From an uncultured virus (IMG/VR IMGVR_UViG_3300046467_003049) (Duplodnaviria; Heunggongvirae; Uroviricota; Caudoviricetes): 55,438 bases of DNA. Position 1 is the first letter of the stretch. Each line of letters opens with the position of its first letter. The position numbers were made by a program, and so were the translations under genes. The notes under the pieces are model-generated. The model was not told where the DNA came from and did no database searches. It saw only the letters and a program-made list of their open reading frames with translations. Of the stretch, positions 6,447-43,129 are shown in pieces. The stretch lies in IMG/VR virus record IMGVR_UViG_3300046467_003049; one strand, given 5' to 3'.

Positions 6447-7993
6447 GTGAACTACTACGGCCATAAATGACCGAGCTTCAAAATCAAGCAGCTTTAGCCG
6501 CTTGATTTATCTTTTTTGACGTTTCATTAGTAGCTGCCTGTTCGCTATGCTTGCAGGTCTTACGTTTACTTCCGCGCCCATTACCTAAACGAAGCACACC
6601 CCGTTTAGACAACTCCGTTCCAGAGTCTAGTATTAAATTAATTGCTCTTTTTACTATGACACGAGCGGCGTTTCTATCCGCATTATCAGCATGTTCACAA
6701 CTAATGCAAACGAACTCACTTTGAGAGCGTCTATTGGCTGAGTGAGTGTGACCGCAATTAGCGCACTCCTGACTTGTGTATGCTGCATTGACTTTAAATA
6801 CACCCTTTGCTTCACGTTTAGCTTTGTACTTAATGTATGATTCCAGTAGGTGCCAACCATTAGCTAAAATGGCTTTATTTAATCCTGATTTTTGTGCGGC
6901 GTTATTAGATATAAATTTACCGTTTTGATTTTGCTTAGCTTTTGCTTTCTTTGTCATGCTAGCGGTTTTTAGATCCTCAAATACAAATACCTGAAAACCA
7001 GAGTTAACAAGCTCGTGACTCGTTTTGTGGCAAAAATCTTTTCTTATACTGGCACACTTTGCATGATGTTTTGCAATGCCGTTTTTAGTTTTATTTCTAC
7101 GTTTCGAGCCTTTGGTTTGCTTTGATAACCTGCGCTGTAATCGCTTAATGTATCGTTGTGATTTAGTGGTTGATTGTTTTTGCTCTTTAGTGAAGTCAAA
7201 CGCCTTATAACCTGCATGAACAGGGACGGCCACACCACGATCTAGACCAACTGTCTTAGTCGTTAATGACTCTTTTGCTTCACCTTGAAGGTATTTTAAG
7301 TGCGCTTTATCATCGAGTAATTGTCTTTCATCAAAGCCGTCATCGTAGCAAAACGAAACGCTATATAGACCGCGCTCTTTCTTGATGTAGATTGATTTTG
7401 GCTCACTGAAATGTCGATGAGATTTAAACGACAAATAACCAATATTGTTCGTTTTAGTGCCTATAAACAGCCGTGTTACACCATCGCTACAGCACTCAAA
7501 ATTAAAGACCTCACTGGTTAGATGAATAGAGCCACGGTCTGATTTAGGTTTGAATTTTGGCTTACCACACTCGCCTTTCATGAATTTTTGATAGGTCTGA
7601 TACCAGTTTACTGCGCTATTTCTAATGATTTGACTAGGGCAGTCGTACAACCAAGGGCTTAGCTCTTTTGACTTAAATTGTGCTGCTTTTTGATCTACGG
7701 GTGCATAAGTGCCGATAGGACAGTATTTACGGGCAAAGGCAGTGTGATATTTTTCTTCACCACACTTGGCATTCCAAATGAATTTGGCGCAACCCATCCA
7801 CTGAGAAAGGCTTTCTTTTTGTTTATCGGTTGGTGTAGCTTTTAACTTAATACCTAATAACATGTTAGCCCTCCTTATTTGAATGGTTGATGTGCCTGTT
7901 TAACAATACTATCATCCTGCGCTGTATTTTTTTGTAGTGTGATTTTATTTGCTAACTCGCCCGTAAACTAACGAGATTGCGCTCACTGTTTTG
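6447..7993 (-). mobile_element. IS200/IS605-family element carrying only tnpB (IS1341-like)
   Basis: Right end GAAGCTCGGTCATTTATGGCCGTAGTAGTTCAC ending 6447; putative left end TTGAA|CAAAAC followed by a subterminal hairpin; no intact tnpA. Confidence 0.7.
6484..7863 (-). CDS. tnpB: RNA-guided endonuclease TnpB
   Basis: N-terminal HTH-like region, RuvC motifs GLDRG / FEDL / NADRNAA, YTSQEC and CANC...CISC zinc ribbon. Confidence 0.95.
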   Translation of the reverse strand: MLLGIKLKATPTDKQKESLSQWMGCAKFIWNAKCGEEKYHTAFARKYCPIGTYAPVDQKAAQFKSKELSPWLYDCPSQIIRNSAVNWYQTYQKFMKGECGKPKFKPKSDRGSIHLTSEVFNFECCSDGVTRLFIGTKTNNIGYLSFKSHRHFSEPKSIYIKKERGLYSVSFCYDDGFDERQLLDDKAHLKYLQGEAKESLTTKTVGLDRGVAVPVHAGYKAFDFTKEQKQSTTKSQRYIKRLQRRLSKQTKGSKRRNKTKNGIAKHHAKCASIRKDFCHKTSHELVNSGFQVFVFEDLKTASMTKKAKAKQNQNGKFISNNAAQKSGLNKAILANGWHLLESYIKYKAKREAKGVFKVNAAYTSQECANCGHTHSANRRSQSEFVCISCEHADNADRNAARVIVKRAINLILDSGTELSKRGVLRLGNGRGSKRKTCKHSEQAATNETSKKINQAAKAA

Positions 7994-10027: not shown

Positions 10028-10669
10028 CTACAGATTTTTCTTCTTACGTCTGGATAAACCAAAACACATCAAGCCGGCTGCAAGCACAGCTAATGATGTA
10101 GGCTCTGGTACAGAAGTAGATGCCGAAACACTTTCACCTGATACCAGAAATACGCCCATGGTGTCAGCAAAATAGTTTTTGTCCGAGACGCCACCAACAT
10201 TAAAATCCATATAGTTAGCATTAAATAGATTGTACTTGACGGTCGTTCTATAAGCAAAACCATCATCGCCATTTAAATACTGACCAAAACTGTAAACATT
10301 GCTTCTGTCCCGATAAGTTTCACCAAACAAGCTCGCAAACTCTAAAGCCGGCTCATCAGCTATCTCCAATCGAGTATTACCTACATTAGATAGCCCATCA
10401 AACCCAAAGAAGTCACTATAAAGTCGGTTAACCTCCTCAATACTTGGCATTCTCCAACCGGCAAACTCACCTCTTTCGAGTGCTCGCTCAACGTTACCAA
10501 TAGACATACCTATGGTTTGGTTAAGATTAAGCCACTCAATACCAGTTTCTTCGTGCAGCACTGCCTGATTATCGCCAGTAGTCTGGTAGTCAGTAAGCAC
10601 AAACCCCGCATTAGCGCTTAAGCTAAAAAACAGCAGTGGCACAACTGTTAAAAACACTTTTTTAAACAT
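10028..10669 (-). CDS. PEP-CTERM sorting domain protein
   Basis: Signal peptide; LHEETGIEWL, GWRMPS; VPEPTSLAVLAAGLMCFGLSRRKKK. Confidence 0.9.
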   Translation of the reverse strand: MFKKVFLTVVPLLFFSLSANAGFVLTDYQTTGDNQAVLHEETGIEWLNLNQTIGMSIGNVERALERGEFAGWRMPSIEEVNRLYSDFFGFDGLSNVGNTRLEIADEPALEFASLFGETYRDRSNVYSFGQYLNGDDGFAYRTTVKYNLFNANYMDFNVGGVSDKNYFADTMGVFLVSGESVSASTSVPEPTSLAVLAAGLMCFGLSRRKKKNL

Positions 10670-10724
10670 TATCAACTCCCTTTGCAAAATGTAAATCCAA
10701 ACACACCTTAACACATCAGCCTAT

Positions 10725-11450
10725 TTACACATCAATCTTACCGACAGGACTCTCGCCTTTAGACTTTCTTCTTGAAAAAGCAAAACCCATCAGACCGGCA
10801 GATAAAATAGCTAGCGAGGCAGGCTCAGGCACGGTCACGTTATTTACCGGTGCATTCGCATTATTAGCGTTCAATGTAGGATCGTTCAGTGATGAATACG
10901 TCGCACCACCATCAGAAACAAGATAAACCCCATATCCCGAATCCGAATATGACGTTGTCGCATTGAAACTCTGATTATAATTCACCGTACTTTGCCTGTA
11001 TGCAGCCGCATACACATACGTGCGATAGGCTACACCCTCATCAACCCCCAAGTGAAGGCCGCGTGAAAAAGTGCCGTTTGCATTTTCGAACGCATAGCCA
11101 AACAGTTCATTGTAAGCAGTAGCAACATCGCGCGAAAGATTGCGAACACTCCCTGCATCTCTAGATAGCTCATTTTGTAACCCAAAGTACTCCGACTCCA
11201 TCGTATACATGTCATCAAGAGTCGGTAGTCTCCACCCGCTAAATTGACCGTCTAGCTGAGCAACAACATCATCAATACTCATTCCCGCAGTTTGAGTGAT
11301 ATTCAGCCACTCAATACCTGTCTCCTCATGCAATACTACTTGATTGTCACCCTCAACTTTGTAGTCAGATAAAACAAAGGCAGCATTAGCTCCCAAGCTT
11401 AATGCTAGCAAAGACATACCCATCGCCATTTTTATTAGTTTCACACACAA
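10725..11450 (-). CDS. PEP-CTERM sorting domain protein
   Basis: Signal peptide; LHEETGIEWL, GWRLPT; VPEPASLAILSAGLMGFAFSRRK. Confidence 0.9.
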   Translation of the reverse strand: MCVKLIKMAMGMSLLALSLGANAAFVLSDYKVEGDNQVVLHEETGIEWLNITQTAGMSIDDVVAQLDGQFSGWRLPTLDDMYTMESEYFGLQNELSRDAGSVRNLSRDVATAYNELFGYAFENANGTFSRGLHLGVDEGVAYRTYVYAAAYRQSTVNYNQSFNATTSYSDSGYGVYLVSDGGATYSSLNDPTLNANNANAPVNNVTVPEPASLAILSAGLMGFAFSRRKSKGESPVGKIDV

Positions 11451-11803
11451 TTCCTTTTGAAAGACTGTTCAATATTAAAGCAATTTTAACATATAGATCT
11501 ATTTATACATCATTAACAAAATAAAAAGCAAAAAAAAGAGGCCGAAGCCTCAACGCAGGGAGTTGCATTTTAAATTGTTACCACCGGAGGAGACACCCTC
11601 CGGTGGCGCTTAATTAATATTCAGATAAATCCATAAACACACTCACCTCTCGCTCTGCATCATCAAGCGAATTAAGCATCTCTACACCTTTTTCGCCAAG
11701 CGACTCCGAAAGGTAGTTTTTAATCGAAGTGCGTTTAACACTATACTCTCTGTCTTTTTTGGCCTTTAGTTTGGCTTTAAGATCTTTGATTTGTCCTTCT
11801 AAG

Positions 11804-12273
11804 TGTGGGAGAGTAATAAAGTATCATACTGAATTGCTCCACAAGCTCTATCACTCAGTTCTAAAACTTATACCATTGAAAATAAAGTCTCATACTGAAA
11901 TATAATTTCTAAGATGCTAGAGCAATCAAGTAGTAATAAAGATTCATACTATTTAATTTTTTGGAATAATTTCACGATAGTGTGCGCCATTAATCACATT
12001 CCATTCTTTTGCTTTTACACAATCATTCATTGTAAAGCAAGACCCTATATTTCGACCTTCAATCGACCACAAAAAAGCTCCTGACTCACGTTGAGCAGAA
12101 TTTGGGTAGAACCTTGAAACCTCATGCTTCTCGTTAACATCAGGGAACTGTTCTATTGCTCTTTTTAATATTTTATCTCTTAAACTCATAATAATACCTT
12201 AAAAATAGTACGATACTTTAAAACTTGGTATGACACTTTATTGCTAAGTATGAAACTTTATTACTCACCTACA
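11804..12273. mobile_element. 470-bp non-autonomous Tn7-family mini-transposon
   Basis: TGT...ACA termini (TGTGGGAGAGTAATAAAGTATCATACT / TGTAGGTGAGTAATAAAGTTTCATACT), 3 spaced + 3 contiguous AGTATGANACTTTATTAC repeats, 5-bp TSD CTAAG. Confidence 0.9.
11953..12189 (-). CDS. 78-aa cargo protein of the mini-Tn7, unknown function
   Basis: Only ORF between the ends; AAGGT SD. Confidence 0.75.
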   Translation of the reverse strand: MSLRDKILKRAIEQFPDVNEKHEVSRFYPNSAQRESGAFLWSIEGRNIGSCFTMNDCVKAKEWNVINGAHYREIIPKN

Positions 12274-13059
12274 CTAAGCTCTGCGTCTCTTTAGCGATAT
12301 CAGCCACTTCATTCTTGTCAGCATCACAAAGCAACTTATCAAAAACCCCTTCTTTTACATCTAAATTTACCAGCACACGCTCGATTGTTTCTTTAGCCTT
12401 GTTGTTGCTTTCAATAACAAGGCGTTTAAGTGCTTTTGTCATTTTAGCCAATGCATCAGCAATTATATCTTCAGCATTTTCATTGAATTTGACAGTAGTA
12501 GAATCAATCGTGTCTAAATATCTTTTTTTCTTAGTTGCTTCTGAGCGTAAACCTGTAAACTTAATCTCAGTCTTCGCTCTCGCAACATAAACAGTTGGTT
12601 TTCTACTATCCCAACCGTCAGTAATACCTGATAACTGATCAGAGCCGCATGTAAAACGTTTATCAATAGAGATCTCAATACCCATCGCATCAATCAAGCT
12701 ATCAATCACATCTTGCTTTAACGTCAACGCTTTACCCACGCTAACACAAGATACGTATTTTAAATTTGCATCTAGTTCATTGGTGAGGTCTTTAGCATCC
12801 ACGTCATCTAAAGTGATATCGCGAAGTAATGTTATAATATTGTGGCTTACAGCTTCTTCAACGGAAAATAAGTTCATGTGTGCGATCTCTTTTGGTGTTT
12901 GTTTTTCAGTATGTATATATTATCACAATGAACCATAGTGTCAATCATTTGTTTTCATAATAGACAAAAAATCAACCGGCATGTCTGGTGATGTATTCCA
13001 CCACCAGACGCAAGCAACTAAACAATCAAGGCAATTAAACACTACCTCAGGAAAGTGTA

Positions 13060-13219
13060 CTTAGATTAAGTTTGCAACCGGATTCTAACCGATGTTTCTA
13101 CAGTGAAGCGCGTCCTATCATGTTAGACGAGATAGATCATAAGACCTATTTATCGGATTGAATGCCGACATTTCGCTGTCGTAGTGTCCTAACGCTAGAC
13201 GACACAAACTTAATCTAAG
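13060..13219 (-). ncRNA. double tRNA-like (dumbbell) RNA, copy A
   Basis: Order D1-T1-closed acceptor-D2-T2, closed by a 15-bp IR; cross-paired anticodon stems; own promoter ~13265-13297; no ORF down to ~12965. Confidence 0.7.
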
Positions 13220-21481: not shown

Positions 21482-21629
21482 CACTTATCGATCTAGCGAA
21501 GGGAACAAATTTTTTCCTTCGCTAACGCCATCAAAAATATCACTGGTTGTTGAAATTATATTAACAAATATTACTTGCTTTTATCGTGTACACGAGTATA
21601 ATAAAGTCATACTCAAAAAGAAGAGAAAC

Positions 21630-26105: not shown

Positions 26106-26734
26106 AAAAAAGGGCTATCACAGCAAGCCATTAACCTTTCGTGTTCATGGCAAAGTTGAATTCCTTTTTTGTCCTTTGGTTTGAGAGAGTATTGATGGAC
26201 ATATATAATTCCATCAATACGGAGTTATGGCTGATAGATAACAACAGTGTGTTCTTCGCCCTTAAGCTCCTCGCTTATTATTGTTGATATGACATCCCAA
26301 TCTCCTCCTGCCAATCCTGCCCCAATTAGAGGATATCCAATCCTTTTGCCAGAAAAGTTTTGTTTTATGAGTTTCATAACATTTCTGATTGCATCGTAAT
26401 CAGCGTTACGACCTTTGCCAGCCCAATGATATTGAGTATAAGCATTAACAATGGTGAAATTTCCCGTATCAGCCTTGCTGTATGTACCGAGCTTATTTTT
26501 TTCACCCTTAGCTGTTTCTAAGTCGGCTTTATACGCCTCTGGAAACTTGTTTTTAATTGTTAAAGCAATCCCTTTTCCCATTTGGCAAAAGCAGTTACAG
26601 CCGTGAATTATTACGTCAAAATTTCCATCTTCTGCAAACTGCAAAAGATCGCCTTTTAATGTTTTCATTTTATAATTGTTCCTCTAAAAATATGCACACG
26701 AAAGTTTAATGGCTTGCTGTGATAGCCCTTTTTT
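26106..26734. repeat. 43-bp inverted repeat (26106-26148 / 26692-26734) enclosing the macro-domain gene
   Basis: AAAAAAGGGCTATCACAGCAAGCCATTAACCTTTCGTGTTCAT, 2 mismatches between arms. Confidence 0.9.
26225..26668 (-). CDS. macro domain (ADP-ribose binding/hydrolase) protein
   Basis: GDL...IIHGCNCFCQMGKGIA and YPLIGAGLAGGDW motifs. Confidence 0.9.
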   Translation of the reverse strand: MKTLKGDLLQFAEDGNFDVIIHGCNCFCQMGKGIALTIKNKFPEAYKADLETAKGEKNKLGTYSKADTGNFTIVNAYTQYHWAGKGRNADYDAIRNVMKLIKQNFSGKRIGYPLIGAGLAGGDWDVISTIISEELKGEEHTVVIYQP

Positions 26735-34682: not shown

Positions 34683-34759
34683 TATATGCTCGCTTGTGTG
34701 TGTTGTTTCAGTAACTTAATATTATCATAATGAAACTATACGTCAATCTTTTATTTCTA

Positions 34760-35419
34760 TTAAGCGGCTATTTCACCCTTTTCTTTTTCAAGGGAATTTA
34801 ACAAGTGATCTATCACATTATACACCGCATACTCACACACTTCCTCAGCGCTTTCAGCACCAACAATATCTGCCAAGCTATGCGTATAGCCATAAGTCGC
34901 TGTAAGCTCCGTTAGCTGGCGTACAACATCATTTTCACCCTCTTCTATGATGTTATATGAGGTGTACTCATTAATCACTATATCGTCCATTGTTAAATCA
35001 TAACGACTCACAATATCTTCAACGTTCTTAAATATACCGCAAGCATCAACAAAGTAATCTTGACCTGATACATTGACTTTTATAAACCCATGCGCAGATA
35101 CGCCAACATTGCTAAGTATCACATGCATATAGCTAACCTTTAAGCTATCTTCGAAACAAACTAATGCATACAAAAGGTGCTCTGCAATCGCGTAACAGTC
35201 AGCCTGGGCATACTGCTTTGTAATTAGTTCATTTACAGGGAATAACAACGAGTCGCCTTGCATTGCTTTAATTGCATCAAGTAGCTTTTTCGATATTACT
35301 CTATCGTCATGCATCATTTGCTCCCAATCAGTCGTAGGGAACATTAAATTACATAGCGATAATGGCATTTTGTGATCTGCTGATAACTGCTCTTGTACAT
35401 TGGCTGATAAAGATGGCAT
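34760..35419 (-). CDS. hypothetical protein
   Basis: GAGG SD; DCYAIA...H...DACG pattern suggestive of a Cys-His-Asp site (weak). Confidence 0.75.
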   Translation of the reverse strand: MPSLSANVQEQLSADHKMPLSLCNLMFPTTDWEQMMHDDRVISKKLLDAIKAMQGDSLLFPVNELITKQYAQADCYAIAEHLLYALVCFEDSLKVSYMHVILSNVGVSAHGFIKVNVSGQDYFVDACGIFKNVEDIVSRYDLTMDDIVINEYTSYNIIEEGENDVVRQLTELTATYGYTHSLADIVGAESAEEVCEYAVYNVIDHLLNSLEKEKGEIAA

Positions 35420-40040: not shown

Positions 40041-40220
40041 TTTAAGTGCCTTGCGTGTGCGTTAATTCAGTATGTATATATTATCATAATGAAACTACTT
40101 GTCAATACTTTATTCTTAAGTAGCGCAAAAAATGACAATAAAGTCACAACCATTAAAGCACTAAGAGGCCACAGGAAGATATGGCAAGCAAGGGTTCTCC
40201 CCTGCTTGCTCTATGTAAAC

Positions 40221-43059: not shown

Positions 43060-43129
43060 TTCGCTGAACCCCCTTCTTTTTTAATATACAACTATTATAC
43101 TCGTGTACACGATATTTTGCAAGGTTTAT

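Follow-up and report, generated by a model that had tools for sequence, protein, structure and literature searches.

A near-minimal natural mini-Tn7 element with a single gene carries ends shared with a glmS-targeting tnsABCDE clade

Laboratory mini-Tn7 vectors consist of the transposon ends and a cargo, and are moved by Tns proteins supplied in trans. Natural transposase-less units have been described as mobile insertion cassettes (mic), in which, according to the account of mic-qnrS2 in PMC2600179, a passenger gene replaces the transposase between inverted repeats accompanied by a target duplication; in that account a trans-acting transposase was inferred for mic-qnrS2 and none was named. 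The sections of PMC5444012 on such cassettes treat them as derivatives of insertion sequences, and those of PMC11832570 on mic-qnrS2 give 22-bp repeats only, the word 'Tn7' being absent from these sections of both papers. In the portions of a review of MITEs that touch on Tn7 (PMC10969869), it appears only for its att site. TnsE is described in excerpts of PMC11014353 and PMC4678854 as directing Tn7 into conjugating and lagging-strand DNA. A literature search, to which subscription journals were mostly external, found no paper describing the cassette family reported below, and supplementary element tables may bear on this point. The search also found no paper with qnrS2 and TnsB together and, among the matches listed, none joining qnrS2, mobile insertion cassette and Tn7 and none joining mic-qnrS2 and Tn7.

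The stretch of DNA analysed here (the window; 55,438 nucleotides, IMG/VR record IMGVR_UViG_3300046467_003049) contains a 470-bp mini-transposon at 11804-12273, which has TGT/ACA termini in the window sequence and a GC content of 32%, compared to 37-41% in its flanks. The first-pass annotation, made from the letters alone, had claimed these termini, this size and a perfect CTAAG duplication, and all of them were found where it had placed them. The repeat of about 18 bp that it had read as three spaced copies at one end and three with a 20-bp period at the other was recovered as 19-bp sites at agreeing positions (Table 1). A possible fourth right-end site near 12188 is absent, six registers there giving scores of -8 to -65 bits. 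The sites were searched for with a profile derived from 158 inner sites in other genomes. The result showed that the window contains six sites of at least 16 bits, all inside the element and scoring 16-32 bits, and that 100 Markov-1 simulated windows contain a mean of 0.08 such sites, with a maximum of 1. The six 19-bp sites are predicted TnsB sites. Their arrangement is asymmetric as in the Tn7 family, spaced at the left end (66/54) and contiguous at the right end (20/20). No match to TnsA-E was detected in the window by tblastn, indicating that the element is not autonomous, and the sole ORF of at least 75 aa inside it is the 78-aa gene, which, as had been claimed, is read from the right end, starting 85 bp inside it. 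The element is confirmed as a real, near-minimal natural mini-Tn7 with one gene. It belongs to known kinds, the mobile insertion cassettes and the non-autonomous Tn7-family elements, and the passenger gene, inverted repeats and duplication of a mic are all present in it.

Table 1. Features of the mini-transposon and the gene it interrupts (window positions)
Feature	Position	Strand	Basis or remark
Terminator-like hairpin 3' of resident gene	11538..11551	-	weak: 1 found, 1.0 expected in shuffles
Interrupted resident gene, 3' part	11614..11798	-	262 aa when intact
Target-site duplication CTAAG, left copy	11799..11803	+	single copy in empty allele
Left end: TGT terminus and three spaced TnsB-type sites	11804..11950	+	site search, profile
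Left-end 19-bp sites	11812-11830, 11878-11896, 11932-11950	+	spacing 66, 54
Cargo gene, 78 aa, unnamed family	11953..12189	-	ORF, profile relatives, AlphaFold2
Possible ribosome-binding site AAGGT, 6 nt before cargo ATG	12196..12200	-	putative role
Right end: TGT terminus and three contiguous TnsB-type sites	12207..12273	-	site search, profile
Right-end 19-bp sites	12207-12225, 12227-12245, 12247-12265	-	20-bp period
Target-site duplication CTAAG, right copy	12274..12278	+	perfect 5-bp match to left copy
Interrupted resident gene, 5' part; now 202-aa ORF ending at 12269 inside element	12274..12877	-	
Sigma-70-like promoter of resident gene, TTGACA-16-TAATAT	12917..12944	-	family D1, 19 copies in window

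The element resembles Tn7 (plasmid R721, NC_002525) in its TGT/ACA termini, its contiguous right sites and a gene running inward from the right end, and the Tn7 end sequence given in the first-pass annotation agrees with the Tn7 end on this plasmid. The left sites of Tn7 are spaced about 64 and 56 bp, close to the values for the element. However, the element has no tns genes, three rather than four right sites and a different site sequence. It also differs from the laboratory mini-Tn7 vectors in being natural, in belonging to another specificity group and in not lying at attTn7.

The end motif was found at no fewer than 123 places in GTDB genomes, mostly of Alteromonadales, Vibrionales, Aeromonadales and their kin, and 80 of these places were taken with long flanks. 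Most of the GTDB loci show the same left or right layout as the window element, and the five protein clusters that occur most often within these ends are TnsE, TnsD, TnsC, TnsB and TnsA. The left ends of tnsABCDE elements have the same spacing (66/54-55), the right-end layout precedes tnsA, and all five tns genes lie beside such ends at L014, L023, L042, L058 and L083 and on the plasmids L180 and L181. The autonomous partner sharing these ends, for which a search had been proposed, was thus found in other genomes as tnsABCDE elements. In sixteen cases the right end is located about 25 bp beyond a glmS stop, and four paired loci (L014/L016, L023/L049, L032/L026 and L005/L060) show matching duplications just behind glmS; the glmS site is used by these autonomous relatives and Tn7 alike. 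The autonomous clade, which is common in marine Gammaproteobacteria and represented in Oceanisphaera, Rheinheimera, Colwellia, Shewanella and Vibrio and on the Proteus plasmid pPp47, shares its site consensus and layouts with the window element, and in two of its members (L019 and L042) the stop of the last gene, tnsE, and the left terminus are about 150 bp apart, as are the cargo stop and the left terminus of the window element. Its TnsB proteins are 56-98% identical to each other and 47-53% (about 48%) identical to Tn7 TnsB, and the clade profile detected no site of at least 13 bits in the 28-kb Tn7 locus, implying that the clade is a separate specificity group. Taken together, the shared ends support a non-CRISPR, glmS-targeting tnsABCDE clade as the probable cognate family.

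Unlike the window element, the autonomous elements supply a transposase of their own; their length is about 13-28 kb, and none of them closely resembles the window ends between the sites. The window ends are 65-76% identical to the nearest other ends compared. For the right end, the highest similarity (88-89% over 71-75 bp) was to an element for which no tns gene was found in the 39 kb examined. The first-pass annotation had also proposed a search for further copies of the element, and no second copy was found: none of 72,556 plasmid records covers 80% of it, and 140 Pseudoalteromonas genomes gave end matches only, save one weak 25-bp match in the cargo region.

When the element and one duplication were removed, a 262-aa ORF was restored, as had been claimed for a frame of about this length, and it is identical to the public protein P0005 at 262 of 262 positions. 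Further uninterrupted full-length alleles are P0027, P0028 and P0006. The insertion site was compared in four sequencing runs. In run X9, which comes from another study, a 10,027-bp contig skips exactly 475 bp at this site; its joint is 11798/12274, five letters fit either side, and CTAAG is present once. The empty allele that had been suggested for relatives therefore exists both as a protein (P0005) and as DNA (the X9 contig). This contig shows only two other differences from the window in about 2 kb, and the insertion is therefore recent. Short contigs of X12 and X14, from two other studies, cross the junctions of the filled form, and X11 had no coverage there. Eight further runs contain 97-100% of the window words and may be its source data. 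The interrupted gene had no Pfam match above the cut-off and no NCBIfam or PHROGs match, no relative of it was found in IMG/VR, and the region 11000-13200 had no DNA match in phage records. The promoter-like repeat in front of it occurs in at least 19 copies before small orphan genes (for example at 12897-12959, 34699-34761 and 40058-40120).

The reading that the element is a natural non-autonomous mini-transposon of the glmS-targeting tnsABCDE clade, moved in trans, is held with high confidence. Such an element would keep only the cis-acting ends, a single gene having taken the usual place of the tns operon. An intact relative within the cell would supply TnsA, TnsB and TnsC; these proteins would bind the six sites and excise the element, and its insertion into the resident gene would leave the 5-bp CTAAG duplication. 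The helper presumably acts in trans. TnsABC together with TnsE, supplied in trans by a chromosomal relative, would be the likeliest route because the target is not attTn7-like and the replicon resembles megaplasmids; granted the rest, the target was probably chosen by TnsE, which favours conjugating DNA. After insertion, the cargo would be read from the promoter of the interrupted gene. The right flank in the window scored -13 on a profile of glmS ends (background -16 +/- 6; true sites 25-38), and the window has no glmS. A second att site shared among elements was also considered, as CTAAC-like duplications recur, and was rejected: the flanking genes differ and the flanks share nothing obvious.

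Movement of the small unit has to be weighed against the shrinkage, in place, of a larger and possibly autonomous Tn7-like element, in which case the 470-bp unit never moved. No 470-bp unit was found at a second site, which fits such a history, and at L129 an array with a cargo relative lies near a decayed left end, so that larger cargo-bearing forms may exist. However, the two flank differences in about 2 kb leave little time for shrinkage, no larger form was seen at the site, where the X12 and X14 contigs fit the small form as far as they reach, and cargo relatives of 95-97% identity on other contigs suggest that the small unit has relatives elsewhere. Shrinkage in place is accordingly considered unlikely.

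Ends of the Tn7 type with 5-bp duplications are also common to CRISPR-associated transposons and TnsD/TniQ systems, and in this respect delivery by a CRISPR-associated transposon, or by TnsD/TniQ at a secondary att site, would fit the element. It is nevertheless very improbable: all autonomous elements observed to carry these ends are of the tnsABCDE type, no Cas family was found in 55 cargo proteins (48 from autonomous elements and 7 from minis; 10 kb examined at each end), the glmS-end profile gives the target flank a background score, and 18 other non-glmS flanks have no common signal. The first-pass assignment to a non-autonomous Tn7/CAST-type element therefore holds for the Tn7 family and is unsupported for the CRISPR-associated part. 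Still less credible is movement by the transposase of prototype Tn7, which the resemblance of the terminus to that of Tn7 might suggest, or by an unrelated IS-type transposase, the origin from which the relevant passages of PMC5444012 derive such cassettes. Against the former stand the zero clade-profile sites in the Tn7 locus and the divergence of TnsB; against the latter, the asymmetric 3+3 inner sites and their linkage to tnsABCDE do not fit an insertion sequence.

Twenty-three other two-ended elements with these ends were tabulated, 19 of them with perfect duplications, and 18 of these 19 have no tns genes; L004/L133 (729 bp, duplication with two mismatches) and imperfect pairings in L059, L077 and L084 stand outside the table. 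Among the complete elements seen, the transposase-less ones outnumber the autonomous ones. The tabulated minis span 202 bp to 11.5 kb and carry, among other cargo, restriction-modification genes, a GIY-YIG nuclease, nhaA-hflKC and, in a prophage, a methylase; just one of the 18 was found at glmS. On a Shewanella khirikhana plasmid (L180, 24282-27032), a 2751-bp mini that carries an Imm49 gene and a hypothetical gene, and is bounded by the duplication TGTGC, is situated within the tnsD gene of an autonomous element from its own clade, although target immunity would be expected; of the observations made here, it comes closest to direct evidence that minis meet their helpers.

Several further elements were observed. 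Transposase-less elements with perfect duplications and type III restriction-modification-like sets are present on Aeromonas pAhD4-1 (L002, 3318-13714) and at L079 (10001-15580). On an IMG/VR contig (L176, 4826-6026), a phage genome contains a 1201-bp mini whose right end is doubled and whose cargo is a D12-class adenine methylase gene; the ends of this mini recur on several related contigs. On Vibrio gangliei pVgang (L001, 10973-15068), a clade right end lies just past an integron integrase accompanied by qnrVC7 and fos cassettes; neither a left end nor a tns gene was found in the 30 kb examined. Gene-less, MITE-sized members with perfect duplications were seen at L077 (10001-10202, 202 bp) and L134 (14723-15050, 328 bp), and the gene-less member from Pseudomonas has a variant site sequence. 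At L006, L031, L039, L064, L084 and L110, two ends face away from each other with 5 bp between them, the arrangement that tandem insertions into a single site should produce.

The clade sites were also found in mic-qnrS2, a resistance cassette of Aeromonas plasmids (L131; L132, NZ_KT315928.1, 2670-4039), which carries 19-bp TnsB-type sites, three of them spaced (66/55) at one end and the others contiguous at the other end. The cassette is 1370 bp long plus a 5-bp CCTCC duplication, which agrees with the 1,375 bp given in the description in PMC2600179. Like the window element, it has one gene between two ends, no transposase and a 5-bp duplication, and lies inside a plasmid gene; unlike it, it is three times longer and its cargo is QnrS2. 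Between the sites, the two elements match at 92 of 150 positions on the left and 68 of 110 on the right. Among six compared, the autonomous element on Proteus plasmid pPp47 is nearest to the right end of mic-qnrS2 (91/110), near-identical left ends (98-99%) occur in Pseudidiomarina taiwanensis (L046), L110 and L118, and 118 plasmid records cover at least 80% of the cassette.

On balance, these comparisons favour the view that a single tnsABCDE clade acts on a large and so far unrecognised pool of gene-sized natural mini-Tn7 cassettes, including the window element and mic-qnrS2. If so, the pool would move single genes, restriction systems and resistance genes among the chromosomes, plasmids and prophages of aquatic Gammaproteobacteria, and the transposase family would be named behind a resistance cassette that was described in 2008 without one. 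The value of the window element lies in the family it exposed, whose minis carry restriction, efflux, ion-transport and resistance genes. Its 19-bp site is a simple handle for finding such cassettes, and its ends, of 147 bp and 67 bp, form a minimal pair provided by nature for a Tn7-type system with non-Tn7 sites.

The cargo stop codon is 2 bp from the innermost left-end site. The cargo protein has three full-length relatives at 74-95% identity and 75 proteins in its family by profile, none of which is named or has a Pfam domain, and proteins 95-97% identical to it occur on other contigs, one of them from a Pseudoalteromonas isolate. It had no Pfam or PHROGs match above the cut-off and none in NCBIfam. 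Its AlphaFold2 model is confident (pLDDT 95). The fold comparison proposed in the first-pass annotation was carried out and gave no convincing match: Foldseek found nothing at E <= 0.001 in PDB or BFVD, the best VIA-align Z was 3.0 and matches in the ESM Atlas were all below 0.9, a result which does not show that the fold is new. With 75 proteins, a confident model and no fold match, the family is a small structural puzzle. IMG/VR contained no relative of the cargo, and phage records gave one weak match (E 0.05). Genomes of the Alteromonadaceae-level family contained none (0/401), those of the family of Vibrio one (1/401, with the same coordinates as the match on the V. tubiashii plasmid), those of the family of Shewanella one that is marginal (1/179), and two further samples none (0/5 each).

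Three cargo relatives had readable DNA, on two metagenome contigs and the Vibrio tubiashii plasmid. All three sit in arrays of small co-directional genes and none is directly flanked by transposon ends; at L129, where the relative is 49% identical, the array stops about 2 kb on, at the decayed left end. Capture of a small plasmid accessory gene from such an array is the most probable origin of the cargo, which has no evident role in transposition. No promoter for it stood out inside the element (5 in the region against 5.3 expected). It runs in the same direction as the interrupted gene, and read-through from the resident promoter could occur. Small co-directional gene arrays with cargo relatives were observed at L128, L129 and L130, and in the first two of these a recurring TAGGAAAC-like motif stands between many of the array genes.

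The window has a GC content of 38%, and nearly all of its ORFs are orphans behind repeated sigma-70-like promoters. Two neighbouring window proteins had their best matches on megaplasmids of Alteromonas (603-610 kb) and Vibrio (880-940 kb). These matches are distant (28-39% protein identity, and one 305-bp DNA match at 72%), and neither the interrupted gene nor the cargo had a match on the two megaplasmids tested, which contain only three isolated 3-mismatch site matches, equal to the control count. The longest contig carrying the truncated resident protein is 583 kb. The replicon may be a conjugative marine megaplasmid. The Alteromonas replicons are classed as conjugative in the part of PMC5217437 that deals with them, and PLSDB types the same megaplasmids as non-mobilizable; the window itself contains no oriT.

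Some other features of the window were seen. Paralogous PEP-CTERM-type genes lie at 1580-2332, 10028-10714 and 10725-11450 and near 55-347, and their relatives occur at six places on each Alteromonas megaplasmid. An IS200/IS605-family TnpB gene is present at 6484-7863, and a second repeat family with the palindrome TCGTGTACACGA occurs, for example, at 21583-21623 and 43073-43114. A 43-bp inverted repeat (26106-26148 and 26692-26734), 95% complementary and with its arms 543 bp apart, encloses a minus-strand ORF which, judged by eye, we take to be possibly macro-domain-like.
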